From: Oscillospiraceae bacterium
Lineage (GTDB): Bacteria > Bacillota > Clostridia > Oscillospirales > SIG627
NCBI GenBank assembly: GCA_015065265.1
Contig: SVQQ01000002.1
Span: forward strand, 21,582 to 85,581
Direction of reading: 5' to 3'
DNA length: 64,000 nt
Numbering within the stretch: the stretch's first letter is position 1; each line of letters opens with the position of its first letter. Shown piece by piece: positions 40,705 to 60,643 of the stretch. The notes below the pieces were generated by a model. The model searched no databases, was not told the origin of the DNA, and was given only the letters and a program-made list of their open reading frames with translations. A program made the translations under genes and the position numbers.

Positions 40705-41775
40705 TTAAGGATGACAACGACCACAGGGTGAATAACCAAGTGATATAACATAGTCACGCGTTCCAGTTAGATACGCTTTATTTTTTTCCTTCATATCGTC
40801 AACACTGCTGCACGATGGATAATGAAATTTTTTCGTGTTCTTATTTCCGACATAGTCGCAGGACTGACTGGTGGCAGGTGTTTCGGTAGAAGGTTTGGTT
40901 GTGGGACTTGTGTCAGAGGAGCCATACGGAGCAGAACCGTCCTTGGCGTAGTTATCGCCCGTCGCGTGGTCAATTACTATACCAGGCTGTTCATTGTAGC
41001 AGAATACATTGAAACAAACCCCTTTGCCGTTATCCTCAACGGACAGAGCTTCGATGAGAACACCAGTCGCTAACAGATTGTTTCCTTCAAAAACAGGTGT
41101 TACTCGGTAAAGCACATGGTTACTTGTGCGCTCAACGTATTCGGCAACATCATTTTCAAAAGGTAGCATACCCTGCACATTGAGCTCTCGTGTACCGGTG
41201 ATTAGGTTAGCTGTGTTTGCATTTTCACCAGTGAGCTGGTAGCCGATAAGGTGGCAGCGGTTATAAAGATAACGGCCGTCGATAAATTCATAACGAATGG
41301 TATGCCAGCCAGAAGGCTTAACAGAACCGATGGAGCCGCGTTCTTCTGTCGGCATTATATCTTTGCCAACGCAGGCAAAAGCAACACCACAGCGTCCCAG
41401 TCTATCTAATGAACTGTATTTTTCAAAGGACGTGGTTGTTTTGTCACTTTCGGAAAAATACGGAATGTTACCGTTGATGGTTACATACGCTCTGCCGTTA
41501 TAAGCAGGCACACTGCTAATATCAAAGGAAGCACTTTGTGTTCCTGTTGTAGCAGGCGGCGTTTCGCTGACAGGTTGTTCAGTAGAGGAGGCATCATCCT
41601 CCACCCCAGCGTCTGGCGCAGGAGTATTTGATGCAGCAGTTTCAGTTAAATTAGTTTCAGTTGTTGGCAGCGACCCAATGCTGGTATCAACAGCGCTTCC
41701 GCAGGCTGATAAAATAGCAGCAATAAGCAACGCAACAACGATTGTGTAAAAGCGTCTTTTCATACATATCACCAT
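40705..41775 (-). CDS. secreted lipoprotein DNA/RNA non-specific endonuclease (EndA/NucA-like) with C-terminal Ada-like Cys4 metal-binding module
   Basis: Lipobox LSAC. Low-complexity linker. The nuclease core NRCHLIGYQLTGENANTANLITGTRELN is an analogue of the DRGH-type beta-beta-alpha-Me motif. C-terminus is KKFHYPSCSS...GYSPCGRCHP. The start could be the internal MKRRFY. Confidence 0.78.
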   Translation of the reverse strand: MVICMKRRFYTIVVALLIAAILSACGSAVDTSIGSLPTTETNLTETAASNTPAPDAGVEDDASSTEQPVSETPPATTGTQSASFDISSVPAYNGRAYVTINGNIPYFSESDKTTTSFEKYSSLDRLGRCGVAFACVGKDIMPTEERGSIGSVKPSGWHTIRYEFIDGRYLYNRCHLIGYQLTGENANTANLITGTRELNVQGMLPFENDVAEYVERTSNHVLYRVTPVFEGNNLLATGVLIEALSVEDNGKGVCFNVFCYNEQPGIVIDHATGDNYAKDGSAPYGSSDTSPTTKPSTETPATSQSCDYVGNKNTKKFHYPSCSSVDDMKEKNKAYLTGTRDYVISLGYSPCGRCHP

Positions 41776-41965: not shown

Positions 41966-42949
41966 ATGGAGGAACAGAACGTTAAAAAAATTAAGCTATT
42001 AAAGCTTGTGGAAATATTGCGCGCGGAGACAGATGAACAGAATCCTATGTTAGCAACGGATGTGTGTAAACGTCTCGCGAACAACGGCATAATTGTTCAC
42101 AGGAGAGTTCTTACTCGTGACATTGATATTTTGAACGAGTTTGGATATGAAATTATGTCGACATTGATAGGACACGAAAGGGCATATTACGTTATAGATA
42201 GGAGTTTCAGTGTTCCAGAACTGAAAATACTTATTGACGCGGTGCAGGCAGCAACATTCATAACAGAAAAAAAGACACCAGAACTCGTCGAAAAAATTGC
42301 TGCACTCGGAGGATCACACAGAGCAGAAATAATGCAAGAAAATATTGTGTGTTTTAACACCAGGAAGCACAGCAACGAATCAATTTATTATAACGTTGAT
42401 TGCTTGGAGAACGCAATACAGAATAACAAGAGGGTAATCTTCCTGTATTACGACTTGGACGAACATGGCGAAAAAGTGTATAGGCGTGATGGACACCATT
42501 ACGTAGTGGAGCCAATAGCGCTGGTGTTTAACGACGACAATTATTATCTCTCCTGCTACAGTGCAAAGCATGATGGGACAGCGAACTATCGCGTTGACAG
42601 AATGACAGCAGTAGAGAGCATTGACGAAGAAATCAGTGAAAAGGCGCAGGAGCTTCGTGGTGAGATGGGCTGTTATACCGAGCAGGTATTCAGAATGTAC
42701 GGCGGAGATATAGAAAATGTCACATTGGAACTTGACGATAAGCTCATCGGTGTTATTTACGATAAATTTGGCGAAGAAACAAAGATAATACGTACAGGTG
42801 AAACAACCGTTGCAGCCAGCGTAAAAGTGCAGATAAGCCCGACGTTCTTTGGATGGTTATTCCAGTTTGGAAATCAGATGAAAGTGCTCTCGCCGAGCAG
42901 CGTGGCAAATGATTATAAGAAGCAGGCAAAGGCTGTGCTAACAGAGTGA
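41966..42949 (+). CDS. WYL-domain transcriptional regulator (BrxR/CapW-like: wHTH + WYL + WCX)
   Basis: N-terminal wHTH (KLLKLVEILRAE...TDVCKRL). WYL core RVIFLYYDLDEHGEKVYRRDGHHYVVEPIALVFNDDNYYLSCYSAKHDGTANYRVDRM. C-terminal WCX-like LFQFGNQMKVLSPSS. Confidence 0.85.
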   Translation: MEEQNVKKIKLLKLVEILRAETDEQNPMLATDVCKRLANNGIIVHRRVLTRDIDILNEFGYEIMSTLIGHERAYYVIDRSFSVPELKILIDAVQAATFITEKKTPELVEKIAALGGSHRAEIMQENIVCFNTRKHSNESIYYNVDCLENAIQNNKRVIFLYYDLDEHGEKVYRRDGHHYVVEPIALVFNDDNYYLSCYSAKHDGTANYRVDRMTAVESIDEEISEKAQELRGEMGCYTEQVFRMYGGDIENVTLELDDKLIGVIYDKFGEETKIIRTGETTVAASVKVQISPTFFGWLFQFGNQMKVLSPSSVANDYKKQAKAVLTE

Positions 42950-42962
42950 TAGGAGGATAAAT

Positions 42963-44912
42963 ATGGCTAATTTATCAAAAGAACGCCGCGACCGCATGAT
43001 TGCAAAGCTGGAGGAGCTGAAGTTGCAGCATAACGATGATGCGTCGATTGCAGCACTCAATGAGATTGAAAATGCGTTGCGTGAAAAGAAATATGGTTTG
43101 GTCTGGGAGCAGCACTCCGAGGCCGTTGACGATATGTTAAAAGAAAATATTCCCGTACTCATAGCAGACCCCGAAAGACGCCTCTGCAAGGATGAGAATT
43201 TACCGTGGAATTTCATTATTGAAGGAGATAATCTGCAGGCGCTGTATCTTTTGGAAAAGACACACCGAGGTCGTGTAGACTGCATATACATAGACCCGCC
43301 CTACAACACAGGAGCGCGCGATTGGAAATATAACAACGACTATGTAGACGGTAACGATGAATACCGTCACAGCAAATGGCTATCAATGATGAGGAGCCGT
43401 CTTGTTGTAGCAAAAAGATTGCTCAATCCAAAAGATTCAGTACTCATCGTAACTATTGATGAAAAAGAATATTTGCACCTCGGCTGTTTGCTTGAAGAAA
43501 TGTTCCCCGAAGCAAATATACAGATGATTAGCAGCGCTATTAAACCGTCTGGTTCTACAAGAGAAACACAGTTTTCAAGGGTTGACGAATACATTTATTT
43601 TGTTATGTTAGGCCAGGCATACCCAGAAGACGGATATGTTGATATGCTATATGATGATGCTGAAAATGTTGAAGTCGCTTCAGTTACGTGGCAAGGGTTA
43701 CGCAGACGTGGTAGCGCAGGATGGAAAAGAGAAAATAGTCCAGGCGGATTCTATCCGATTTACATTAGCGTAACGACGGGAAAACTACATTCTGTTGGTG
43801 ACGCGATTCCGCTGGGAGTTGATAGAAACACGGTCATTGCACCAGAGGGAACTTTTTGCGCATGGCCTCTCGACCCTCAGGGTAATGAAGGAAGATGGCA
43901 AGTTAAGCCAGAGCGTTTGAGAGAACAGCTTGAAGAAGGCACAGCATTTCTTAGTAAGTATGATATTGAAAAACAAACCTGTTCCATAAAATATTTAAAA
44001 GATGGTGACAGAAATAGAGTTCTTGGCGGTGAGTTTGATACTAACGGGAGAGATTCGGAAACAGGCGCCTTAATTGTCGTTCCTAAACGTTTGAAAAATA
44101 GACGTCCAAAATCGATGTGGCTTATGAAGACACATGATGCAAGTGCCTATGGTACAGCTCTTTTATCGAAATTTATAGGCGTACAAAAATTTTCATTTCC
44201 CAAGTCTCTTTATGCAGTACAGGATACAATAAGATTTTTTGTATCAAAAAAACCCGAAGCAATTATCGTTGACTTTTTTGCTGGAAGTGGCACAACTCTG
44301 CACGCAGTTAATTTGCTTAACGCAGAAGACGGAGGCAGCCGACGTTGTATAATGGTTACAAACAATGAGGTCAGCGAGACTGAGCAAAAAGAGTTTGAGG
44401 CTCGCGGTGTTAAAAAAGGAGACGCAGAATGGGAAGAACGCGGCATTGCAAAATACGTAACCTGGCCACGTACAGTTTGTAGCATCAATGGTGTTGATGT
44501 AAACGGGGCGTCTATAAATGGCGAATATTTTACAACAGATAGCGAAGGGCTGCCTATTCAAATGTCAGATGGTTTCAAGGCAAATGTAAAATACTTCAAA
44601 TGCGACTGGACGCCGAGAAAGCCGGAAGACTACCTTCTCAGTAATGCGCTATGCTTGCACGTGAAGGAATTGATTGAACTGCAAACGGCTCGCGAAGTTG
44701 ACGGAGTAAAGCAAGTTCTTATTCTTAGCAAGAGTGATTATAAGCGTGTTTTTGAAAATCCGGAAGCAGCGGCATCTGCGGAAAATGTCTGGGTGAATGA
44801 AAACCTTGTATTCAGTTCTGCTGAAATGAGCATTCTGCGAGAAAAGAATTTCCGATATATTCCGCGTGAATATTTTAGCCAGGAATTAAAGGAGGTTGGC
44901 GAATATGTTTAA
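42963..44912 (+). CDS. Type III-like DNA methyltransferase (Mod), beta-class amino-MTase
   Basis: Motif IV IYIDPPYNTGA (about nt 43281-43313) precedes motif I IIVDFFAGSGTTLHAV (about nt 44262-44306), with a variable TRD-sized region between. 8-nt overlap with the res-like gene. Confidence 0.85.
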   Translation: MANLSKERRDRMIAKLEELKLQHNDDASIAALNEIENALREKKYGLVWEQHSEAVDDMLKENIPVLIADPERRLCKDENLPWNFIIEGDNLQALYLLEKTHRGRVDCIYIDPPYNTGARDWKYNNDYVDGNDEYRHSKWLSMMRSRLVVAKRLLNPKDSVLIVTIDEKEYLHLGCLLEEMFPEANIQMISSAIKPSGSTRETQFSRVDEYIYFVMLGQAYPEDGYVDMLYDDAENVEVASVTWQGLRRRGSAGWKRENSPGGFYPIYISVTTGKLHSVGDAIPLGVDRNTVIAPEGTFCAWPLDPQGNEGRWQVKPERLREQLEEGTAFLSKYDIEKQTCSIKYLKDGDRNRVLGGEFDTNGRDSETGALIVVPKRLKNRRPKSMWLMKTHDASAYGTALLSKFIGVQKFSFPKSLYAVQDTIRFFVSKKPEAIIVDFFAGSGTTLHAVNLLNAEDGGSRRCIMVTNNEVSETEQKEFEARGVKKGDAEWEERGIAKYVTWPRTVCSINGVDVNGASINGEYFTTDSEGLPIQMSDGFKANVKYFKCDWTPRKPEDYLLSNALCLHVKELIELQTAREVDGVKQVLILSKSDYKRVFENPEAAASAENVWVNENLVFSSAEMSILREKNFRYIPREYFSQELKEVGEYV

Positions 44913-47181
44913 TGGTACACTTCTTCCATTTCAGGAGAAACACGAAATAAATCTTTTAAAAGCGTGTGCCGAACACAAGCGGCTTGTGCTGCAGGCGCCG
45001 ACTGGCTCGGGAAAAACCGTCCTTGTAACAAAATTTATAGACGATTATCTTGACACAAATCCAGACACTGTGTTCCTTTGGCTGTGCCCAGGAGCAGGCA
45101 GTCTTCAGGATCAGTCGCGCAGTGTTTTTGAACGGTTGACTTCCGGCATTAACGCCGGAGATATATACGATTTTATTGCAGAATATTCCCCTGCGGGTGG
45201 CGTTTACTTTGTCAACTGGGATAAAATTAATAAGTCTACAAACGTTGTTCTGCGAGATGGTGAGGCTAAAAATCTTCTCGAGAAGGTTATAGAATGCAGA
45301 ATGAAGTTAATTGATTTTTTCATGATTGTTGACGAAGAACATCTAAATAAGAAAGCGGCAGAAATGTATGAGAGCATTTTTGACCCAGCACATATTCTTA
45401 GGATTTCCGCAACAACAAGATCGAAGGATGGACACATTGAAGTGGTCAGCGATGACGAAGTTATTACAGCAGGATTAATTGCTTCGGGTATTTCCATAAA
45501 TGAACATTTGACGGAGCACGCAGTTTATAATGATAATTATGTGGACGACCTGTTGCTTCTTCAAATGGCTGATGAAAAGCGCAAAGAAATCCAGGAAGAA
45601 TACGAAAAAAGAGGATTGAATATTAGACCGCTTGTTCTCGTTCAATTCCCGAATGGTAGTGAGGAATGGATTGCAAGAGTAAAAACAGAACTTGCAAACA
45701 TGGGTTACAGCGAGAAAAATGGGCTCGTTACATCTTGGTTTAGTGGTGATCACCCAGAGCAGCCCGAAGAAATAACCAAACTTAATGGTAAATATGCCTT
45801 CCTCCTTTTCAAGCAGGCAATCGCTACAGGGTGGGACTGCCCTCGTGCAAAAATTCTTGTTAAGTTGCGCGAAGGTACCTCGGAGGCATTTGATATTCAA
45901 ACAGTTGGAAGAATCCGTCGTATGCCGGAGCGATGCCATTATGAATCAGAGTTGCTTGACCACTGCTATGTTTATACGCTTGACCAGAAATTCAGTGAAG
46001 GACTTACATCAAGCATTACGGATTCGTTTTATTTGAGTCGCTTCATGAAGAAAGATAATGCGATGAATATGATTCTTGATCGCAAATATCTCGCAGAAAG
46101 CGACCGTCAGGCAGTTGATGAGGAGGCCGTTGTTAAGGCAGTAAGAGCAAAACTGTTGCTCGAGTGCGACCTTGACCAAAATGGATGCTTGAACAAACAT
46201 GAGTTGGCAACAACAAAAGGCTTCACTTTTGGACTGAAACTAAAAACGCGCGCAGTTGAAGGTTTTGCCAGAACAGCGCATGACTTGACTAAACTACAAG
46301 CAGTTTTCTGTGGAGAACATGAAATAAACATACACGATGACGGTTTTATAATTCGTGATGCTAAGAGAAAAATAGCGCAGGCAATCGGAATAGATGAAAA
46401 CATTTCAAGCAAAGCGCTTGCGATTTTGTTTGATGCATCCACGATGAAAATGCCGTTTGCGTACGACGGAACAATTTCCTTCTTCTCGGATGAGGAGATA
46501 GATTTGGATAAAAAGTACAAACTCATTAAAGACATGGGACACAGAGAGTATTGTGCATTTTTAGTAAACAACTGGGAAATTCTTGCGGATATGCTGCGTG
46601 ACATTGATAAAACAGGCATCGAACTTGTTGACACCAAGGTTATTGAATCACCGTGGAGCGTCCCGAAGATGCAGGACTACAAAAAGCACAACGGAAGCAG
46701 GCAGTGCAATATTCTCGAAAAGAATGTGTTCATTGGATACGGTGATGATATACTCGTTCAGCCAAACCGTTCTCAGCCGGAGATTTATTTCGAACAGTGG
46801 TGCGAAATGAACAATGCTGTGGAATGGGTGTATAAGAACGGCGACAAAGGACAAGATTTCTTCTCCATCGTTTATCGCGTAGCATTTAGAAGGTATAATT
46901 TTTACCCAGACTACATCATCAAAATGAAAAATGGTGATGTTTGGATTCTTGAAACAAAAGGTGGCGCAGCGCCAGACGGAACGTCGGCAAACATAGATAA
47001 TTATGCTGCTCAGAAATTTGATGCCTTACGAGAATACGGCGAACAGAACCCAAAAATAAAATGGGGATTTGTTCGTAATTTTGGCGTACAGCTTTACGTT
47101 TCAAATACAATTTGGGATGAAGATTTATTTAATCAGAACGTATGGAAACCCATTAAGGATGTAATCGGTTTCGAAGGTTAA
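44905..47181 (+). CDS. Type III-like restriction subunit (Res): SF2 helicase plus C-terminal PD-(D/E)xK nuclease
   Basis: LQAPTGSGKT (I), MIVDEEH (II), ISATT (III), QTVGRIRR (VI). C-terminal FYPDYIIKMKNGDVWILETKGG. ATG at 44905 follows AAGGAGG. Confidence 0.8.
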   Translation: MFNGTLLPFQEKHEINLLKACAEHKRLVLQAPTGSGKTVLVTKFIDDYLDTNPDTVFLWLCPGAGSLQDQSRSVFERLTSGINAGDIYDFIAEYSPAGGVYFVNWDKINKSTNVVLRDGEAKNLLEKVIECRMKLIDFFMIVDEEHLNKKAAEMYESIFDPAHILRISATTRSKDGHIEVVSDDEVITAGLIASGISINEHLTEHAVYNDNYVDDLLLLQMADEKRKEIQEEYEKRGLNIRPLVLVQFPNGSEEWIARVKTELANMGYSEKNGLVTSWFSGDHPEQPEEITKLNGKYAFLLFKQAIATGWDCPRAKILVKLREGTSEAFDIQTVGRIRRMPERCHYESELLDHCYVYTLDQKFSEGLTSSITDSFYLSRFMKKDNAMNMILDRKYLAESDRQAVDEEAVVKAVRAKLLLECDLDQNGCLNKHELATTKGFTFGLKLKTRAVEGFARTAHDLTKLQAVFCGEHEINIHDDGFIIRDAKRKIAQAIGIDENISSKALAILFDASTMKMPFAYDGTISFFSDEEIDLDKKYKLIKDMGHREYCAFLVNNWEILADMLRDIDKTGIELVDTKVIESPWSVPKMQDYKKHNGSRQCNILEKNVFIGYGDDILVQPNRSQPEIYFEQWCEMNNAVEWVYKNGDKGQDFFSIVYRVAFRRYNFYPDYIIKMKNGDVWILETKGGAAPDGTSANIDNYAAQKFDALREYGEQNPKIKWGFVRNFGVQLYVSNTIWDEDLFNQNVWKPIKDVIGFEG

Positions 47182-50476: not shown

Positions 50477-50877
50477 TAGTTGCGTGTGACGAATGTGGTA
50501 AAAGCATTGAAAGAAAGAAACCACGCGAGCATAACTTTTGCTGCGCAAAACACAGAGACATGTGGATGCGGAAGCATTGCGACTTTGCGGGTATATCACG
50601 CGGCCACAAAGCAGAGCATTTAACAAAGCTCAACCGTGAGCGCAACCCGCTATGCAGAGTGGCACCACGCGGAAAAGTCAATTCCAAGAAGGCACGCAGC
50701 ATGGCGGAAGGATATATCGGCAGACCGCTTCGTAAAGGTGAAATAGTACACCATATGAATGGTAAAGCGTCAGACAACAGCCCGCAGAATCTTCTCGTTA
50801 TGACGGACAGGCAGCACAGACAGCTACATATGGCGCTGGCAATGGAACAGATGGAAGGTGGCGATGACGATGAGTAA
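50473..50877 (+). CDS. HNH homing-type endonuclease
   Basis: N-terminal CDECG...CCAKH zinc finger. EIVHHMNGKASDNSPQNLLVMTDRQHRQLH HNH core. Confidence 0.85.
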   Translation: MIVACDECGKSIERKKPREHNFCCAKHRDMWMRKHCDFAGISRGHKAEHLTKLNRERNPLCRVAPRGKVNSKKARSMAEGYIGRPLRKGEIVHHMNGKASDNSPQNLLVMTDRQHRQLHMALAMEQMEGGDDDE

Positions 50878-52984
50878 AGGATGCGCTTTCCTAATGGACA
50901 TGGGTACCGGTAAAACAATTACAACAATTGCCGTAGCAGGAGCATTGAACGGAAAGCATAAAGTAAAGAATTTGCTTGTCGTTTCACCTAAGTCGATTGT
51001 TACTGTGTGGCAGCAGGAGTTTGAAAAATTTGCAGACTTTCCATATCAGCTGGCAGTGCTGGATGGTACCGGCAATAAGAAGGCCGATACTATCAGGTAC
51101 ATGGTAGGCACAGGACTGCAGGTAATCGTTGTGAATTATGAAAGCTGCTGGCGCTTAGAGGATGAGCTCATGCGCTGGAAGCCAGACATGATTGTTTGTG
51201 ATGAGAGCAGCAAGATAAAAAATCCGCAGGCAAAGTGTTCAAAGGCACTACACAAACTTGGTAAGGTCAGTGAATACAACCTCATTCTGACAGGCACACC
51301 GATAACAAACAGCCCGCTCGACTTCTTCAGTCAATACAAGTTTCTTGACGAGACTATATTTGGAAGCAGCTTTTACGCCTTCCGCAGCAAATATGCAATA
51401 CTCGGCGGATTCCAAAATCACCAGATTGTAGGATATAAAAACCTGCAGGAGCTGGTGGAAAAAGCACACGGAATCGCGTATCGAATAAAGCTGGATGAAG
51501 CGGTGGAATTACCGGAGTTCGTTGAGGAGATGCGACCAGTGGAACTGGAGAAAAAGGCGCAGCAGATATATGCTGACCCAGGAATATCAGGCACCAGAGC
51601 AGAAAGACGTCCAGATTTCCTCCGAATGATAGAAGACTGCAGGCAGGGCAAAATACAGAAAGTGCTGGTAAAGTCAATCAGCCGATTCGCAAGAAACACA
51701 GTTGACGCGCTAAACTACATCCGCGAACTGAAAGACTTAAACATAAGCGTATACTTCGAAAACGAAAACATTGACACACTGACACCAGGCGGCGAAGTGC
51801 TACTAACCATACTTGCAGCGATGGCAGAGCAGGAATCGCGTACAATGAGTACAAATATAAAATGGGCGTACAGGAAACGCTTCGAGTCGGGAGAGGTCAT
51901 TCTCAACACAGGGCTGATGCTCGGATACACAAAGGTCGGTAAAGACGAAGAAGGTCACGCAGTATACGAAATAAACGAAGAAGAAGCAGAAATTGTGCGA
52001 CGCATATATCGAGAATATACATCAGGAGCAACACTCTCACGAATCGCGAAAAGACTGGAAGCAGATGGCATACAAACAAAACTTGGCAAACAAGAATGGT
52101 GTGTATCGGTAATCAGGAGCATACTCACAAACGAAAAATACACCGGATGCGCAATACTCGGAAAGACATTCAAACCTGACGTGCTAACAAAGTACAGGCA
52201 GAAAAACACCGGTCAAGCTCCGATGTTCTATACCGAAGGCACTCACCCTGCGATAATCGATAAAGAACTGTTCGAGCTTGCAAAAGACGAGATGCAGCGC
52301 AGACGCGATACGAAAGCAGAAGCAGTCGGAAACACAAGATTCAGCAGCAAATACCCGTTCAGCGGATTGCTAATATGTCACTCCTGCGGACACAAATATC
52401 GTAGACATACAAGAAAAGTCGGTGAGAAAAAGAGAGTTCCTGCATGGGCGTGTGCGTACAAAGTAAATAACGGCAAAGGCTCATGCGAATCTCATCACAT
52501 AAACGAAACGGTCATAGAACAAACATACCTTGCAGCAATAAGACGTATGGTAGAAGATGCCGACGAAATAATTGCCCTGGTAAGAGAAAGCACACAGTTA
52601 GCGATGGAACCTGAAAATGCTGCGGCGATAGCGGCAACGGAACAAGAAATCGTCGAAGTGCAAGAAGCCGTTCTCAAACTTCACAAAGAGAAGCAAGCGC
52701 AGATAGTGAGCTCTGCAGAGTACAACAGGCAAATGTCACAGTACAAAGAAAGGATGCAGACGCTCGAAAGCAAGATGAGTGAACTACAAACCGCAGGAAA
52801 TCGGTACTCGAAAGTAGAAAAATGGTTGGAGGTATTCGCGGAGCATACAAAGAACAGCGAAACAGTCAACGAGATAGACGGAATAATGGTAAAGGCGCTG
52901 GTAGACCATATCATCATAAAGGACACCAGCATGGAAATACACTTCAAATGCGGAGCAACAATAGAACAGGACTACGTAAAATGA
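50858..52984 (+). pseudogene. chimeric ORF: SNF2 helicase ATPase N-lobe (to about 51565) fused in frame to a 5'-truncated large serine recombinase (about 51566-52984)
   Basis: N part: MDMGTGKT (I), VCDESSKIKN (II), LTGTPITNS (III). From IYADPGISGTRAERRPDFLRMIE...SISRFARN...AEQESR onward it is resolvase domain, recombinase domain, zinc ribbon (CHSCGHKY...CAYK) and coiled coil. The first 45 or so aa, which carry the catalytic Ser, are missing. Confidence 0.65.
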
Positions 52985-52988
52985 TAGA

Positions 52989-53030
52989 AGCCCTCGGCAT
53001 CAGAAAACTGGTGCTGAGGGCTATTTTTGT
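52989..53030 (+). terminator. rho-independent terminator
   Basis: AGCCCTCGGCATCAG-aaaa-CTGGTGCTGAGGGCT (two G-U pairs) followed by ATTTTTGTTT. Confidence 0.8.
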
Positions 53031-53091
53031 TTAAAAGAGTAACGAAATCGTTACGTTTAACTGTTAAAGGTGATATTTTCGCTCCGAAAGG

Positions 53092-53120
53092 TTGAAAAAG
53101 ACACAAAATTATGATAAAAT
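53092..53120 (+). promoter_or_regulatory. sigma-A-type promoter of the orphan six-gene operon
   Basis: TTGAAA, 17 nt, TGATAAAAT (extended -10). The track ORF start at 53111 lies inside this promoter. Confidence 0.55.
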
Positions 53121-53158
53121 TAAAAATGTTATTTAAGACTACACAAAGGAGGCGCAAC

Positions 53159-54754
53159 ATGGAAAATAAGACATTTATATCGGAAGTGTCAAACGGAGGA
53201 AATCCAAATCCAAAAGACAATATTTTTGCTGGCATTTGGAAGCAGTACGAAAGAGTTGTGCTTCATAGTTTGATAACGTCATTTGGTCTTGATTTTCTTG
53301 TTCACGACCAGGTTGGCGGAGATGTAGACACAGTTCATGGCGTCCGTGAAGGCATTGCATATAAGAACCCTGATAATGCGGCAGCGTATGAAGCACGCGG
53401 TTATTATGATACAGCGGCATATCATGGCGATGACAGATATAAAATGCGTGTGCAGGAAGCAAGAGCAGCATTTAATAGTGAAGGCATAAGGGTTGAAGAT
53501 GCGTATGTGCCTGGCAGACTTCTCTCTTTTACAAAGGCATCAGCTGTAGGAACAACAGGACGCGCAAACCTTGATCACGTTGTTGCAGCAAAGGAAATAC
53601 ACGAAGACAGAGGCAGAATATTAGCAGGAATAGATGGCGTAGATTTAGCAAACAGTGAATACAATTTGCGTTTCACAAACGAAAACCTTAATAAGTCAAA
53701 AGGTGCTGATTCCGTTGAAGAAGTGCTGAACAGAAAAAGTCATAACTTCGATGGTGAAAAAGGTCGAAAAATACCGGATGAGGTTGCCGATAAAATGCGC
53801 GAGGAAGACAAACAAGCCCGCGCACATATGGACAAAGAAATTGAGACGACATACTATTCGAGCGCACGCTTTTTAGAAGATGCGGCCGTTGCCGCTTGCC
53901 AGCGTGGTGTCGAGATGGGTATGCGACAAGCTGTTGGATTCTATTTTTTAGAAATATGGCTCGCTTGCGAGGAGGAATTTGAAGGCATCAATGCGCATTG
54001 TGAAATAGCGACAGTTATTGCAGCTATAAAAAACGGTGTTGCAAAGGGCTCTGAAAACGCATTAAAAAAATACAAAGAGTTATTCAGAAATTTTGGTGAG
54101 GGATTTGTTGCAGGAGCAATGGCCAGCTTGACAACCACACTTATAAACATTTTTGTAACTACAGACAGGAATACTGCCAGATACATAAGACAGGCATCAG
54201 CAGCAGTCGTTCAGGCGGGAAATATTTTGATCATAAATCCGAACAATTTGCTCATCGGCGAACAGCTGAAAGCAGCCACTGTAACATTAGCTACAGGAGC
54301 GAGTGTCATAGCAGGAACAGCAGCAGGCAGTCTTATAGAAAAGACACCAATATATAAAGTACCGGAAGTCGGCAAATTCGTTCAGATATTCTGTTCGACA
54401 TTGGTCAGCGGATTATTGTCTTGCACGTTACTTATAATGCTTGACAGGAGCAAGTTTATCAATAACCTTGTAGCAGCGCTGAATAAATACGAAGATGAAA
54501 CGCGCAATTATGTGAAGCTGGCAGAAGAATTTTCTCGTATGGCAGCGGAAATGGAAAACTACGATATAGCCACATTCCGTGCTGACGTGATGCGGTTCTA
54601 CGATGTTACATATAGAATTGCTGCAGCGACAAATGAAGAAGAAATGGAGAGAGTTCTGCTTTCCGTTTGCACTATTTTTGATATTGATATGCCCTGGGGT
54701 GAAGATTTAGATAGTTTCATGGGCGATTCAAGCAACAAACTGGTGTTCAACTAA
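53159..54754 (+). CDS. gene A: N-terminal HNH-like (beta-beta-alpha-Me) domain, 3-4 hydrophobic helices, C-terminal helical domain. Function unknown.
   Basis: ATG follows AAGGAGG. LDHVVAAKEIHEDRG...YNLRFTNENLNKSKG (aa 138-182) resembles Cys-less HNH. Hydrophobic segments at aa 314-334, 346-367, 371-392 and 405-428. Confidence 0.65.
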   Translation: MENKTFISEVSNGGNPNPKDNIFAGIWKQYERVVLHSLITSFGLDFLVHDQVGGDVDTVHGVREGIAYKNPDNAAAYEARGYYDTAAYHGDDRYKMRVQEARAAFNSEGIRVEDAYVPGRLLSFTKASAVGTTGRANLDHVVAAKEIHEDRGRILAGIDGVDLANSEYNLRFTNENLNKSKGADSVEEVLNRKSHNFDGEKGRKIPDEVADKMREEDKQARAHMDKEIETTYYSSARFLEDAAVAACQRGVEMGMRQAVGFYFLEIWLACEEEFEGINAHCEIATVIAAIKNGVAKGSENALKKYKELFRNFGEGFVAGAMASLTTTLINIFVTTDRNTARYIRQASAAVVQAGNILIINPNNLLIGEQLKAATVTLATGASVIAGTAAGSLIEKTPIYKVPEVGKFVQIFCSTLVSGLLSCTLLIMLDRSKFINNLVAALNKYEDETRNYVKLAEEFSRMAAEMENYDIATFRADVMRFYDVTYRIAAATNEEEMERVLLSVCTIFDIDMPWGEDLDSFMGDSSNKLVFN

Positions 54755-54774
54755 AATAGTGTGGAGGAAAATTT

Positions 54775-55689
54775 ATGTTTATTATACGATGGATAATAGA
54801 AAAACTCGCAAAATTCTTTTCATCTAAAGCAGGTAAAATTGCTGCTTGGATTGGGGTTGGCGTAGGCGCAGGTGCAGCAGCATACGGCGGTGTAGAGATA
54901 GGTAAAGCTGTGAAATTAAGTAAACGCGCACAGAAAATCAGAGATGAAGCGTTGCAGCGACATGAAGAACATTACAACAAAGTACAAAGCGCATTGGAAG
55001 CAGCCGGCAATAAGAAACTTGCGGTGGTGAAATCTTTTGAAGATTTTGCAAACCAAATGGAAAAGCTACAAGGAAGACCAGAGTTTGCTGATATTATGCC
55101 AAATGACTGTGATTTGCCTAAATTCACAGCAGAAGATTTGAAAGTGATTTCAAACAAAGTCGCGTTAGCAGTTGAAGGCGCAGCATTTGCAGGAGCAGGC
55201 GCAGGGATTGGTATTGCCGCATATGGCTTAAATGTTTTTGCATTCGGACCCGGTGTATTGTTTGCTGGTGTAGGAATACTTGTAGCAGGAGAACACATTA
55301 AGAAGAAAGCCATTGAAAATAACAAACAGGCAAAATTACTTTCAAAAGAAGTAAAGCAGATTGTGGCGCAATATGATGAGCTTACGGATGCGGCAGAAAA
55401 TTTGACGAAGCAGCTTGATGATATTTATTCGCAGTATCAGAGATATTTTGGTAAGATGAAAAAAATACTTGCAAAGAAGACCCAGTGGAACGACCTCGCA
55501 GAAAAGGAACAGCGGGTAATAAAAGATACTGTCATGTTAGTAGGGACATTGTTTGAGCTTTGCAAAATAGAGCTTGTTGTGAAAGAAAGAAAAACGGAAA
55601 GCATCAATACTGAAGCAGTCAAAAAGTCAGAAGTTACAGTAGATAAGACATTGAAACGAACAAAAAAGAAGTTTTTAATCTTCGGATAA
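54775..55689 (+). CDS. gene B: glycine-zipper/coiled-coil membrane protein, function unknown
   Basis: SD GGAGGA. G/A-rich hydrophobic segments at aa 21-40 (AAWIGVGVGAGAAAYGG) and aa 129-172 (AFAGAGAGIGIAAYGLNVFAFGPGVLFAGVGILVAG), separated and followed by charged helical regions. Confidence 0.6.
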   Translation: MFIIRWIIEKLAKFFSSKAGKIAAWIGVGVGAGAAAYGGVEIGKAVKLSKRAQKIRDEALQRHEEHYNKVQSALEAAGNKKLAVVKSFEDFANQMEKLQGRPEFADIMPNDCDLPKFTAEDLKVISNKVALAVEGAAFAGAGAGIGIAAYGLNVFAFGPGVLFAGVGILVAGEHIKKKAIENNKQAKLLSKEVKQIVAQYDELTDAAENLTKQLDDIYSQYQRYFGKMKKILAKKTQWNDLAEKEQRVIKDTVMLVGTLFELCKIELVVKERKTESINTEAVKKSEVTVDKTLKRTKKKFLIFG

Positions 55690-55717
55690 AAGCGGTTTCA
55701 ACTGCAGGAGGAATAAC

Positions 55718-56836
55718 ATGATTTATAAAAATACAGGATTCAGGGCGTTATATAAGAATTTTTGCGCCTTTCCATTAACAGATAAATATAGAGAATGCAT
55801 GAAAGAGTACCCGAATATAGAGCAGGCAAACTGCATGCTGGTATATGGCTACATAGACACAGAAGCAGGATTGACGCTTGAAGTTCTCGCAGCAGGATAC
55901 CAGGAAGACGATAGTTATCGTTTCTTTGATGGAAGCGATAGAACACGTTTCTTTATTCGCGTAGGAGCCGTTGAAAATGAGGAGTTCGGATATTTCGGTG
56001 ATAACGAAGATTTTCGTAAGCGCTATGCAGAAAAGCTGGATATGATAAAAGACTATGCTGCAGATGAAGAAGTTGAAAAATCACGCGAAATGGGCTTCCT
56101 CGATGGCAGCAGGCATCCGCATTATCCAGACGACGTACAGGTGCTTTTGGTAAGAGAAGGATTTAATACGGAGGCGTGCTGGGTGCGCATAGTCGGGCTT
56201 GGTGAACATTGGATAATGGGTACTTTGCTCAATGAGCCGGAGCAGGCATTTGGATATCACATAGGAGAAAAGATAGCATTTTTCGTACAGGAAAATGCAG
56301 ATAAAGAGGTCATTTGCTATTCGGATATGACACCGAGCAAAAAACTCACAGCAGAGGATTTAGCAGATGGAACTATGCTGAAGGCAGCAGTAAAGACATT
56401 CAACGAAGAAAGAACAGAGCCACATTTTATTGAAGTGCTTGAATTGCTTCGTGACAGTTATGTTTGGATTCCTTGTAACGCTGTGCTTGGAGAAGCAGAT
56501 ATAGCAGCAATGCAAAAAGCTATCGACGAAGCAGGCGACGACCTTTCGTCTATGGTAGGACAGACATTTACAAACACAGAGAACATAAGAATGGTGCCGG
56601 ATATATTGCAGAACGGCAACGACTTTTTCTTCCCGATATTCTCAAGCTGTGAAGAAATGGGCGAATACGGACAAGGCTTCTCAAAGGTTGAAAAGCATTT
56701 TATGGAGGCACTGACGATGGCAGTTAACAATGACCGAGATTTAAAAGGTATCGTGTTAAATGCTTTTTCGGAACCGTTCATACTCGATAAGGAAATATTT
56801 GATATAGTACAAAACATGAAATCACGTATAGAATAA
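55718..56836 (+). CDS. gene C: DUF2314-like plus SseB-like two-domain protein (tentative)
   Basis: SD AGGAGG. ACWVRIVGLGEHWIMGTLLNEPEQAFGYHIGEKIAFF resembles DUF2314. The C-terminal half (VWIPCNAV...FFFPIFSSCEEM...LNAFSEPFIL) resembles the SseB family. Confidence 0.55.
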   Translation: MIYKNTGFRALYKNFCAFPLTDKYRECMKEYPNIEQANCMLVYGYIDTEAGLTLEVLAAGYQEDDSYRFFDGSDRTRFFIRVGAVENEEFGYFGDNEDFRKRYAEKLDMIKDYAADEEVEKSREMGFLDGSRHPHYPDDVQVLLVREGFNTEACWVRIVGLGEHWIMGTLLNEPEQAFGYHIGEKIAFFVQENADKEVICYSDMTPSKKLTAEDLADGTMLKAAVKTFNEERTEPHFIEVLELLRDSYVWIPCNAVLGEADIAAMQKAIDEAGDDLSSMVGQTFTNTENIRMVPDILQNGNDFFFPIFSSCEEMGEYGQGFSKVEKHFMEALTMAVNNDRDLKGIVLNAFSEPFILDKEIFDIVQNMKSRIE

Positions 56837-56850
56837 AAAAGGAGGCAGCC

Positions 56851-57240
56851 ATGGGACAAGGATACACATTGTGTTGTGAACAGTGTGAATACAGCGTAGA
56901 ATACCTGCAGGGCGTTGGTTTTTTGTTTTACAAAGAAGCCGAGGATATACTTGCGGATATGAAAGCAGGCAAAATGGGAAAAGGTTTCATGGAAGCCGCA
57001 AACAACGCTGCAGCGCCAACAATTAACCATTCCCGCGAATTATACAAGTGTACAAAGTGCGGTGAGCTTAGACCGGATATGCACATAGAGCTTTATGACG
57101 GTGAAACCGTAGTAAAAGAAAAGCAGCATGTATGTGGTAAGTGCCGGAGCAGCATGCGCATTGTTAAAAACATAGATAAAATAAAGTGTCCCCGATGCGG
57201 CAAGAAACTTGAACTTGCAGGAATTCTCATGTGGGATTAA
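56851..57240 (+). CDS. gene D: double zinc-ribbon protein
   Basis: SD AAGGAGG. Four CxxC pairs (CEQC, CTKC, CGKC, CPRC). Confidence 0.6.
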   Translation: MGQGYTLCCEQCEYSVEYLQGVGFLFYKEAEDILADMKAGKMGKGFMEAANNAAAPTINHSRELYKCTKCGELRPDMHIELYDGETVVKEKQHVCGKCRSSMRIVKNIDKIKCPRCGKKLELAGILMWD

Positions 57241-57254
57241 GGCTGGTGAGACAA

Positions 57255-57683
57255 ATGGATATAATAAAAATAATAATTAAAGGTGCATCAGGTTATGGCT
57301 CCGTAGACGATGCTTATGATGATAAGCTCATACTGACAGATTCATCCATTAGTTACGAATATATACCACATCCCATGAGCCAGTCAGAAATAAACGTTCA
57401 TCAAAAATGGGCATACAAAACCGACAGTCCGTTGTTTAAATGCATTTTCAAAGCGATAGCAGCCAAGACCCCCGAGTATTTGCATAGCGACGAAATATTG
57501 TTTGCATATGATATAGGACCCACAATCATAACGGCAACCTACGAAGACAAACATAGAGAAACGGTAACATATTTTTGTCCGAGTGAGTATTTTGTGGAAT
57601 ACTTTCAGTTGATAAAAAAGCTGGTGCCTCCGTGTGAAGACGTGCCAGAACTACTTAAAACAAGAGAAGATTATGAGGAATAA
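57255..57683 (+). CDS. gene E: hypothetical protein
   Basis: ORF in an operon context. ATG 57255 is preferred over the GTG at 57231 that overlaps gene D. No motif recognised. Confidence 0.5.
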   Translation: MDIIKIIIKGASGYGSVDDAYDDKLILTDSSISYEYIPHPMSQSEINVHQKWAYKTDSPLFKCIFKAIAAKTPEYLHSDEILFAYDIGPTIITATYEDKHRETVTYFCPSEYFVEYFQLIKKLVPPCEDVPELLKTREDYEE

Positions 57684-57698
57684 ACAAAGGAGGGCGAC

Positions 57699-58028
57699 AT
57701 GATTACAAAGGTTATATTTGGTAATATTAGAAAGGAGCGCCAGGAGGATTGGCACAAAAACGACGAAAATCCTTACGCTGTAGTTGACGAAATATATGAA
57801 GTGCCGGAGGCATACACAGAAATTTTGGAATACGGAAAAACGCATTTCAGCGACCCGATTAACGTAGACTGGGGTAGCTGCGCGTGGAAATGTACCTATG
57901 ATGAATTTGTAGCGTACTTAAAACATTACAAATTCAAGGTGCCGGCAGAAATAGAAAACATAGATAAAGATAAAACATACGGGATTATATTCATAGAGGA
58001 AGTGGGTTACAGCGATGTGTACGAATGA
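57699..58028 (+). CDS. gene F: hypothetical protein
   Basis: SD AAGGAGGG. 109 aa. No motif recognised. Confidence 0.5.
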   Translation: MITKVIFGNIRKERQEDWHKNDENPYAVVDEIYEVPEAYTEILEYGKTHFSDPINVDWGSCAWKCTYDEFVAYLKHYKFKVPAEIENIDKDKTYGIIFIEEVGYSDVYE

Positions 58029-58161
58029 TAAAAACGAATTTGATAAAATAGCGGAGCTTATATCAGCACAGCTTGGAGAAAGAATTGCGAACAATGATAG
58101 CACACCGATTTTTTGTGGTGTAGCAGGTCAAGAAGAAAACGCAGAAGAAACAGACGATTAA
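58015..58161 (+). CDS. possible 48-codon ORF overlapping the end of gene F
   Basis: My own translation: MCTNDKNEFDKIAELISAQLGERIANNDSTPIFCGVAGQEENAEETDD. The ATG is embedded in ATGTGTACGAATGA, which overlaps the gene F stop. Below the track cutoff. Confidence 0.25.
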   Translation: MCTNDKNEFDKIAELISAQLGERIANNDSTPIFCGVAGQEENAEETDD

Positions 58162-58232
58162 AGAGCAGGCAAAAACAGACTACTTTTTTGAGTTTTTACC
58201 TTACTTATACTCCGTTTTGTAGTTGTTTCGCA

Positions 58233-58490
58233 GAAAAAAGCACATCTGTTTACAGATGTGCTTTTTTCAGTTATATTCGCCTTACGGCGAGTTCTATGCA
58301 CAAGTGCGTGATATGTCCTTCGGACCTGATATGCGCTTCGCGCGTTAAGAGTTCAAAGGCGAATATAATATCACTGCGGAACGAAGTGGAGCAATATCAC
58401 TTTTGCGAAGCAAAAATATCACGCTGAGCGTGAGCGAAGCATATCACTAAATCTCTTTACAACTTGCAATCTTTATGCTATAATATTCTT
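58233..58490 (+). repeat. 255-bp module copy 1: terminator + ATATCAC mini-hairpin array + promoter
   Basis: AAAAAAGCACATCTG-ttta-CAGATGTGCTTTTTT. Two GTGATAT/GATAT words, then four (A)ATATCAC words at 58367, 58393, 58415 and 58440, each followed by a short hairpin. Ends with TTTACA-17-TGCTATAAT (58456-58484). Confidence 0.85.
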
Positions 58491-59000: not shown

Positions 59001-59254
59001 GAAAAAAGCACATCTGTTTACAGATGTGCTTTTTTCAGTTATATTCGCCTTACGGCGAGTTCTATGCACAAGTGCGTGATATGTCCTTCGGACGTGATAT
59101 GCGCTTCGCGCGTTAAGAGTTCAAAGGCGAATATAATATCACTGCGGAACGAAGTGGAGCAATATCACTTTTGCGAAGCAAAAATATCACGCTGACGAAG
59201 TCAGCATATCACTAAACTCTTTACAACTTACAACTTTTATGCTATAACATTTTT
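59001..59254 (+). repeat. 255-bp module copy 2
   Basis: Near-identical to 58233-58490, except that one hairpin unit is replaced (GCTGAC-gaa-GTCAGC versus CACGC-tga-GCGTG plus GCGAAGC) and there are a few point changes. The -10 is TATAAC. Confidence 0.85.
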
Positions 59255-59923: not shown

Positions 59924-59944
59924 TGACAAAAGGCGGTGAGTGTT

Positions 59945-60643
59945 ATGAACGATCTTTATATACAAGGATTACGAATAAACTGGGATACTCTTCCTAAAAC
60001 CTCTTATGTTCACAACATTCCTGCCATAAAAAGCACTACAGAATTGAAGTTTGATAAGCCAATTACATTTTTTGTTGGGGAAAATGGGGCTGGCAAATCA
60101 ACATTACTCGAAGCTATAGCGGTAGAATTTGGCTATAATTCAGAAGGTGGTACACGGAACTACAGTTTTAGTACGTATTATGACATTTCGCCTTTAAGCG
60201 AATCCATTACATTGATTAAAGGTTGGAACCGACCAAAATTCGGGTACTTCTTCAGAGCCGAAACTTTTTTCAATGTTGCGACAGCATCAATGTTTAACTA
60301 TATGGGAGATAATTATCACGCGAACTCTCATGGCGAGGGAAATTTACGATTCTTGGCATACGCCAAGCCCGGACTTTACTTAATGGACGAACCCGAGGCC
60401 GCGCTTTCTCCTCAACGTCAACTAACATTGTTAAAACATATTTATGATATGTCAAAAAAGGGGGCGCAATTTATAATAGCAACACACTCACCCATTCTTT
60501 TGGGATGTCCCGACTCACAAATTTTATCTTTTGATGAAGGAAAGATTTCGTCTTGTAAATACGAAAACACATTGAGTTATCAAATCACAAAAGGATTTTT
60601 GCTCAATAAAGAGCGTATGTTGAAAGAATTGCTTGATGATTGA
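59945..60643 (+). CDS. small stand-alone ABC/SMC-type ATPase (COG3910-like)
   Basis: Walker A GENGAGKSTLLEAI, Walker B LYLMDEPEAALS, D-loop/H-loop ATHSPILL. About 230 aa with no other domain. Confidence 0.72.
   Translation: MNDLYIQGLRINWDTLPKTSYVHNIPAIKSTTELKFDKPITFFVGENGAGKSTLLEAIAVEFGYNSEGGTRNYSFSTYYDISPLSESITLIKGWNRPKFGYFFRAETFFNVATASMFNYMGDNYHANSHGEGNLRFLAYAKPGLYLMDEPEAALSPQRQLTLLKHIYDMSKKGAQFIIATHSPILLGCPDSQILSFDEGKISSCKYENTLSYQITKGFLLNKERMLKELLDD

Follow-up and report, generated by a model that had tools for sequence, protein, structure and literature searches.

The closest described relative of the genes considered here is the Dionysus system of P. aeruginosa, which consists of the large protein DinA with a transmembrane part, the TerB-like protein DinB and DinC, which resembles alpha-helical pore-forming toxins and for which similarity to ClyA and Hbl was reported by the authors (bioRxiv 10.1101/2025.09.30.679545). 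DinA, DinB and DinC are all required, and the plating of jumbo phages falls more than 10^6-fold. It was further found that DinA and DinC co-localise in foci on the early infection vesicle, and a binding of DinC to the DinA C-terminus was predicted (bioRxiv 10.1101/2025.09.30.679545). TerB domains are also part of the defence systems Bunzi and Shango (Millman et al. 2022). In this study, we analysed a seven-gene operon (genes A to G) in a 64,000-nucleotide (nt) stretch of DNA of an Oscillospiraceae bacterium (contig SVQQ01000002.1), which is referred to as the window and whose positions are used for all coordinates; the operon region comprises positions 53092-58232. We propose, with moderate confidence, that genes A and B encode a minimal, TerB-less relative of Dionysus, that is, a membrane-associated pair directed against phages or other invading DNA.

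The two genes are inherited together over large phylogenetic distances. A genome scan, in which every species was represented by one genome, returned 80 loci with a homologue of A, which were found in Clostridia, Lactobacillales, Paenibacillaceae, Bacteroidota, Desulfovibrionaceae, Helicobacteraceae, Treponema and Gastranaerophilales. A homologue of B is located 3' of the A homologue and on the same strand in 78 of these 80 loci, Proteobacteria included, and the A-B pair is also present on Klebsiella and C. difficile plasmids and in Aeromonas jumbo phages. At the nucleotide level, homology between the window and two of its closest relatives, L001 and L002, covers precisely the segment that begins with the promoter and ends with the stop codon of B (53086-55690), beyond which the loci diverge. 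Because A and B are paired this consistently and C to G are limited to the closest clade, where they vary, only A and B represent the conserved unit; the claim of a preliminary description, according to which the operon is a self-contained system of six or seven genes, had to be given up. The same description had asked whether homologues of A to D occur together and lie in defence islands: A and B do co-occur and have defence genes as neighbours, and C and D accompany them in the closest clade only.

The common layout of distant loci is [WYL regulator]-A-[YkgJ]-B-[TerB], in which the YkgJ or CxxCxxCC protein of about 83 amino acids (aa) belongs to PF03692 and the TerB protein of about 132 aa to PF05099. 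Loci of Bacteroidota are arranged as A-YkgJ-TerB-B, and one Desulfovibrionaceae locus as A-TerB-B. YkgJ-like genes accompany the pair in 62 of the 80 loci, TerB genes in 27 and WYL regulators in at least 27. None of the three lies inside the window operon, and the clade to which the window belongs is devoid of all three in the operon. A literature search yielded no description of YkgJ in an anti-phage context.

Gene B encodes a glycine-zipper and coiled-coil membrane protein, as had been noted in the preliminary description, with two hydrophobic segments (Table 1). Other members of the B family match the PADLOC model PDC-M09A with E-values (E) of 1e-16 to 1e-31, and DinC of Dionysus matches the same model with E 8e-25. 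When the B alignment was compared with Dionysus DinC using hhalign, a probability of 94% was obtained (E 1e-7). Furthermore, the B-like protein of locus L079, which is encoded 3' of an A homologue and a TerB gene, shares 31% identity with DinC over 325 residues (BLASTP, E 8e-17). Because of the shared PDC-M09A matches, the hhalign comparison and the alignment of the L079 protein, B is, judged from its sequence, a member of the DinC family. A PDB sequence search with the B profile gave no match, and Foldseek retrieved generic helical bundles from the PDB with the B model; the AhlB pre-pore was found with E 0.9 and a template modelling score of 0.24.

The protein encoded by gene A matches the PADLOC model PDC-M40B over its full length (E 2.9e-30), its homologues on plasmids and phages match the same model with E 5e-39 to 3e-31, and none of the proteins A to G matches PDC-M40A. 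Hundreds of full-length homologues of A exist, all of which lack a Pfam domain, and an exhaustive profile search grouped the family into 1200 clusters at 50% identity. A possesses three hydrophobic segments (residues 315-335, 375-393 and 404-429), which follow an N-terminal alpha/beta domain. Within this domain, D139, H140, N169 and N178 show no variation across 81 diverse members, among which are the copies carried by plasmids and phages. The AlphaFold2 model, in which residues 50-250 reach a predicted local distance difference test (pLDDT) score above 90, places the motif on a strand (NLDHV, 135-140), a second strand (NLRFT, 170-174) and a helix (NENLNKSK, 175-181), with a 27-residue helical insert between the two strands. 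Catalytic roles were assigned to these residues by eye, by comparison with the HNH motif of the Cas9 and DUF1524 type (D-H...N...N-x-x-K). A shares the pattern D-H...N...N-x-S-K on a predicted strand-strand-helix with the HNH or His-Me finger domains of the DUF1524 type, which are found at the C-termini of GmrSD and SspE, but differs from them by the 27-residue insert; searches in Pfam, of PDB sequences and with Foldseek brought no significant match, and a nuclease activity is putative. HNH-like is a reasonable reading of the front domain of A as far as sequence and model go, with a fold that profile and structure searches left unconfirmed. Of the HNH-like membrane protein proposed in the preliminary description, the hydrophobic helices were recovered, and the HNH-like domain is supported by the invariant residues and the predicted secondary structure and was not confirmed by a profile or fold search.

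Further searches with A were of limited yield. Pfam detected no HNH domain in window A, and the commonest weak Pfam match of the family, present in 45 of 81 members, was BPD_transp_1, an ABC permease family. The A homologue from Klebsiella weakly matches the C-terminal region of SspE (E 3.7e-4), a PDB sequence search with the A profile gave no match, and a Foldseek search of BFVD with the A model returned the homologue of phage LAh10 only. PHROGs and NCBIfam searches with A to G produced noise only.

Using the Din sequences of Table S1 of the preprint, A and B were compared with the components of Dionysus. A is similar to DinA in size (about 530-560 aa), in gene position and in the order of a soluble N-terminal part and hydrophobic helices, and B is, by sequence, homologous to the effector DinC. 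Relatives of the window pair can carry TerB in the position of DinB (A-TerB-B, as in L079) as well as a WYL regulator. A connection between A and DinA is provided by the hybrid protein P0378, which is encoded at locus L095 (592-5200) of metagenome contig SRR24639051_84260. Residues 15-440 of P0378 are 31% identical to window A (E 1e-74), residues 411-590 are 31% identical to the C-terminus of a DinA homologue from Azospirillum (E 3e-26), and the locus is organised as hybrid-TerB-DinC-like-WYL. This sequence link between A and DinA is stronger than the one obtained by profile comparison, and the hybrid locus indicates that A and DinA take equivalent places next to a DinC-type protein and that their C-terminal modules can be swapped. 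In contrast to these similarities, the HNH-like front of A is unlike the N-terminal part of DinA, which is labelled MAEBL-like in the preprint, and the YkgJ CxxCxxCC protein found in most A-type loci is no part of Dionysus. In addition, Dionysus was reported from Gamma- and Betaproteobacteria, whereas the A family is found chiefly in gut Firmicutes and Bacteroidota.

A defence role, directed against phages, is most likely for the pair. In the reading that we favour, A and B would be transcribed from their own promoter and act as the functional unit, with C to G being co-transcribed and standing outside the core, and the pair would belong to a horizontally mobile superfamily of paired membrane-protein modules that includes Dionysus. 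A would occupy the position of DinA and dock with B via its hydrophobic helical body and C-terminal tail, while its N-terminal domain with the HNH-like metal-site motif would face the cytoplasm and probably serve as sensor. Before infection, A and B would reside together in an inactive state at the cytoplasmic membrane. An infection-linked signal, for instance phage DNA or an event at the membrane during entry, would then be sensed via the N-terminal domain of A, whereupon B, a DinC-type effector expected to insert into or perforate membranes, would be freed to make the cell membrane, or a membrane compartment built by the phage, permeable. The A domain may also cut incoming DNA, and either effect would halt the phage. 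Among the co-transcribed genes, C may encode an SseB-type peptide-binding chaperone and D would encode a zinc-ribbon protein.

Several observations speak against this proposal or limit it. Window B itself matches PDC-M09A with an E of only 8.8e-4 (PADLOC), and it was placed in the family by way of its relatives and of profile comparisons. Moreover, its model is weak (pLDDT 61, below 50 in the hydrophobic parts). Foldseek, which had been suggested in the preliminary description as a means to place the proteins, was run with models of A and B and gave no significant PDB match, that is, nothing below E 0.1 with either model. The HNH assignment of A was confirmed by no profile: in a Pfam scan, HNH_4 was found in 4 of 81 family members, in all cases with E 0.05 or worse, and an hhalign comparison of A with the C-termini of two GmrSD proteins encoded by neighbouring genes gave E 0.37. 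At default settings, no similarity was detected between A and the N-terminal 399 aa of DinA or the Azospirillum homologue. A sensitive hhalign comparison of A and DinA is collinear and weak (E 2.7e-4, probability 42%) and deteriorates to E 2e-3 with a broader A profile. The alignment is confident mainly in the last approximately 50 residues, where both families end with F(D/N)xFM....LV(F/L), and its score was reached by none of 30 shuffles of columns and 30 of blocks, nor after reversal of the alignment. TerB is essential in Dionysus, but Pfam finds none in A to G. The A family has candidate status only and no member of it is backed by experiment; to our knowledge, PDC-M40, whose protein B model is matched by the A family, and PDC-M09, whose protein A model is matched by the B family, are candidate entries without experimental validation. 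A literature search found no description of either entry. Finally, the presence of homologues in jumbo phages and on conjugative plasmids fits a competition between mobile elements equally well.

According to this last alternative, A and B would form a competition, superinfection exclusion or addiction module that benefits plasmids, islands or jumbo phages, which we regard as improbable. The homologues outside the genome scan lie on plasmids, on an island with an integrase nearby and in phages: the C. difficile plasmid carries WYL-A-YkgJ-B, conjugative IncF plasmids of Klebsiella encode the B-like protein, the A-like protein and then YkgJ, and in E. coli (3 of 5426 complete genomes) the pair is held by an island beside tRNA-Sec, near an integrase and restriction-modification (RM) genes. 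A B-like and A-like pair is also encoded by the four Aeromonas jumbo phages LAh10, D3, D6 and D9 (L083, 2949-5545). The window operon abuts a serine-recombinase remnant, and Mob_Pre and transposase genes are among the neighbours of its relatives. However, a search of a viral contig collection with the A alignment gave 33 pattern matches, none of which was confirmed as a relative of A, and the pair has no obvious labile-antitoxin architecture. Because most defence systems also ride on mobile elements, this alternative differs from a relative of Dionysus in the beneficiary and not in the mechanism.

That jumbo phages carry a pair of the A-B type is of note since the related Dionysus system targets jumbo phages; a survey of jumbo phages (PMC7824862) does not mention the A family. 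In public databases, homologues of A are labelled as cobalamin adenosyltransferase and homologues of B as chemotaxis protein, for instance on the Klebsiella plasmid CP052287.1 (L081), in LAh10 (L083) and in E. coli AH21 (L094). The module of AH21 (NZ_CP081711.1, 73150-77093) is composed of an HTH regulator, the B-like protein, the A-like protein and YkgJ. Neither label was supported by any search made here.

The remaining genes of the operon differ from A and B in their distribution. Protein C matches SseB (PF07179, E 1.6e-9, residues 221-359) and has more than 687 full-length homologues, which form a group of SseB-family proteins of about 373 aa; of the DUF2314-like and SseB-like parts initially suspected, only the latter was recovered, as Pfam found no DUF2314 match. 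The SseB domain is predicted to be a peptide-binding chaperone of counter-viral systems (Iyer et al. 2022, PMC9503650). On four metagenome contigs (L086-L089), members of the C family are found without A and B among tightly packed small genes, either with a WYL regulator on one side and a type I RM operon on the other or 3' of the BREX gene brxL. WYL proteins related to that of the window head the islands that hold the C family. It was considered that D and E travel with C elsewhere, and neither was found in L086-L089 by phmmer. Protein D possesses the four CxxC pairs of the double zinc ribbon that had been attributed to it, with zinc-ribbon matches that stay below threshold. That D may substitute for YkgJ was considered as well, the sole support being that both are cysteine-rich. 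For E and F, the absence of a recognisable motif was confirmed: E matches no family in Pfam, PADLOC, PHROGs or NCBIfam, and F gives a sub-threshold match to Imm6 (E 0.006) only. PDB sequence searches with C, E and F were likewise negative.

Among the 80 A loci of the genome scan, C, F and G are found in none, and D and E in the three closest ones only, with D-E after B in L001, E after B in L002 and D before A in L003. All seven genes are present in L090, the A protein of which is 82% identical to that of the window. The order there is A-B-D-C-E-F-G, with C and D swapped; the proteins share 71-89% identity with those of the window and the genes are spaced equally tightly. L090 contains the only homologue of F that was found (89% identity) and a 48-aa open reading frame (ORF) with 72% identity to G and the same overlap. 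Genes for a YgjP-like protein and a WYL regulator lie 3' of its operon copy, and an RM system comes next. Relatives with a 69-71% identical A protein carry A-B alone. Because the subsets and their order vary in the closest clade (A-B-D-E, A-B-E, D-A-B, A-B-D-C-E-F-G and A-B alone), C to G would not be fixed parts of the system, and they appear from their distribution to be real, recurrent genes of this clade that behave as movable cassettes.

It could be argued instead that A to G are a single integrated system in this clade, in which C to G, for example as chaperone, zinc-ribbon sensor or antitoxin-like regulators, replace YkgJ, TerB and WYL. The recurrence of the full, tightly spaced set in L090, the adjacency of D or E to A-B in L001, L002 and L003 and the coincidence that the clade with C to G is the one without YkgJ and TerB are all compatible with this idea, as is the lack of an internal terminator of any strength. 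Nevertheless, we consider it rather unlikely, given that A-B stands alone in relatives with such a similar A protein, that L001 and L002 carry subsets only and C, F and G are missing from the loci of the genome scan, and that the C family occurs in other defence islands without A-B; the co-occurrence can also be explained by the shared ancestry of a few close loci.

The sub-threshold Imm6 match of F, the nuclease-like motif of A and the resemblance of the downstream genes to shuffled cassettes are also what would be expected of a toxin with an immunity array, in which the role of a nuclease toxin or bacteriocin would fall to A, that of its membrane translocator or holin to B and that of immunity proteins to C to F. 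This explanation appears very improbable to us. A and B are devoid of a signal peptide and of LXG, RHS or other trafficking domains, and the nuclease-like domain is N-terminal and invariant across the family instead of being polymorphic. Most loci have no downstream array, and C, with its SseB domain, lacks a Pfam immunity match.

The features of the operon are compiled in Table 1. The seven ORFs on the same strand, the intergenic gaps from A to F of 20, 28, 14, 14 and 15 nt, the Shine-Dalgarno pattern and the terminator at 58233 are all present as listed in the preliminary description. Shine-Dalgarno sequences of the GGAGG type lie 5' of A, B, C, D and F, E is preceded by GGTGAG only, and G has no well-placed Shine-Dalgarno sequence; G is probably a real gene, judged by its counterpart in L090. 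From a reading of the sequence, A was taken to start at the ATG at 53159, eight bases 3' of AAAGGAGG, and the start of the longest ORF at 53111 was rejected because it lies inside the -10 element. For E, the GTG at 57231, with which the longest ORF begins, was set aside in favour of the ATG at 57255, which fits the length of the homologues.

Table 1. Genes and predicted expression signals of the operon region (positions within the window).
Feature	Position	Strand	Description
Terminator-like hairpin upstream of the operon	52989-53022		
Sigma-70-type promoter-like site	53092-53120	+	TTGAAA, 17 nt, TG-TAAAAT; 10/12 positions, TG extension
Gene A	53159-54754	+	531 aa; N-terminal alpha/beta domain with HNH-like D-H...N...N motif (~40-205), helical linker, 3-4 hydrophobic helices (315-429), helical C-terminal tail
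Gene B	54775-55689	+	304 aa; N-terminal glycine-zipper helix (22-40), coiled coil, central hydrophobic hairpin (129-175), second coiled coil; assigned to the DinC / PDC-M09A family
Gene C	55718-56836	+	372 aa; SseB-family protein, accessory cassette
Gene D	56851-57240	+	129 aa; four CxxC pairs (double zinc ribbon), clade-specific accessory
Gene E	57255-57683	+	142 aa; no recognisable domain, clade-specific accessory
Gene F	57699-58028	+	109 aa; no secure domain, accessory
Gene G	58015-58161	+	48 aa; 14-nt overlap with the end of F
Terminator-like hairpin closing the operon	58233-58268	+	16-pair stem; first 36 nt of the 195-nt repeat

The promoter that had been predicted behind the upstream terminator is present as well. 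In the region as a whole, 22 promoter-like sites were found and 20.6 are expected from shuffled sequence, a number not above chance. However, the DNA segment shared with the related loci L001, L002 and L090 opens at 53086-53097, so that the site has evidently been kept together with A and B; a promoter function is predicted for it. As stated beforehand, there is no strong internal terminator, just a single weak terminator-like site with 3 GC pairs (54642-54668) within A, which is probably due to chance. These observations support a tight operon of A to G with a promoter of its own.

The closing hairpin of the operon opens the first copy of a 195-nt direct repeat (58233-58427 and 59001-59195, 99% identity). 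Each copy contains two matches to the Rfam family Gut-1 RNA (RF01706), one per strand, which stay below threshold (35.6-42.3 bits compared with a gathering score of 50). Two shorter repeats, of 84 nt (at 58490 and 59620) and of 41 nt (at 58450 and 59214), hold promoter-like sites and starts of small ORFs.

The accessory-island setting of the operon near RM and phage genes was confirmed, and its relatives are likewise located amid defence and mobile-element genes. In the 80 loci, the immediate flanks are mixed and comprise regulators, transposases, Mob_Pre and housekeeping genes as well as a substantial proportion of defence families; the latter include GmrSD, SspE, MADS, RmrA, PsyrT, DpdF, JukA, methyltransferases, PDC-S01 and HEC-05. 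The island of the window contains a WYL regulator with a type III RM system, an S24 repressor, a phage HNH gene, a chimera of an SNF2 helicase and a serine recombinase, and an AAA_21 ATPase. The regulator, of the WYL/WCX type, and the subsequent type III-like RM pair (N6_N4 methylase and ResIII helicase) are located at 41966-47181. This WYL protein has a 76% identical homologue directly after the seven-gene operon copy in L090 (6145-7975). The island is flanked by a gene for a DNA/RNA non-specific endonuclease (Endonuclea_NS_2; 40705-41775, minus strand) and by one for an AAA_21/AAA_15 ATPase similar to AbiEii or OLD (59936-60643, plus strand), both of which may be further defence genes.

The recombinase remnant upstream of the operon is a 708-aa ORF (50858-52984), an in-frame chimera of the N-terminus of an SNF2 helicase (residues 6-254) and a large serine recombinase. 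Compared with the profile, the resolvase domain of the recombinase part is short of about 23 positions at its beginning, where the catalytic serine of such domains is normally found. The other half of the SNF2 gene, which would mark an inserted element, was sought downstream: an inspection by eye, without a family search, of the ORFs of 100 aa or more between 60.6 and 64 kb revealed none that looked helicase-like.

In the preliminary description, the operon was presented as an undescribed system that could not be mapped onto any other. This does not hold for its core, since A falls into the PDC-M40B family and B into the PDC-M09A family together with DinC; the core families are already listed as defence candidates, and PDC-M09A contains a validated effector. 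By the standard set in that description, its claim is half refuted: profile searches place A and B in listed families, yet only as candidates and with no described function for A. The PADLOC models of Bunzi and Shango match none of A to G and, unlike these systems, the window operon has no TerB; relatives of the window module do possess TerB, and the combination seen in BnzA of Bunzi, in which TerB is joined to a C-terminal glycine-rich hydrophobic segment, also occurs among them. The module is nevertheless a variant in four respects: the front domain of its large partner differs, TerB is missing, the accessory genes are others (YkgJ in most clades, C to G here) and the host range is very wide. 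Going further, it is conceivable, though we hold it only tentatively, that A and B represent a distinct, so far unnamed type of defence, in which a membrane-tethered His-Me nuclease and a DinC-type pore former would act together where phage DNA enters the cell or on membrane compartments built by the phage, with triggering or regulation left to exchangeable parts, namely C to G in this clade and YkgJ and TerB in others.

The A family is large and reaches, without a Pfam domain, from gut commensals to plasmids or islands of Klebsiella and E. coli and to jumbo phages. Given the link to DinC, Dionysus may be a single branch within a much broader group of paired membrane modules, between which front domains and accessory genes (TerB, YkgJ, WYL and, in the window, C to G) would be exchangeable. 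If A is an active, membrane-anchored nuclease, DNA cleavage and membrane damage, two usual effector strategies, would be combined in one small system. Should A and B indeed constitute a distinct type of defence, they would belong to a modular family that is far wider than Dionysus and extends across gut Firmicutes, Bacteroidota, enterobacterial plasmids and jumbo phages.

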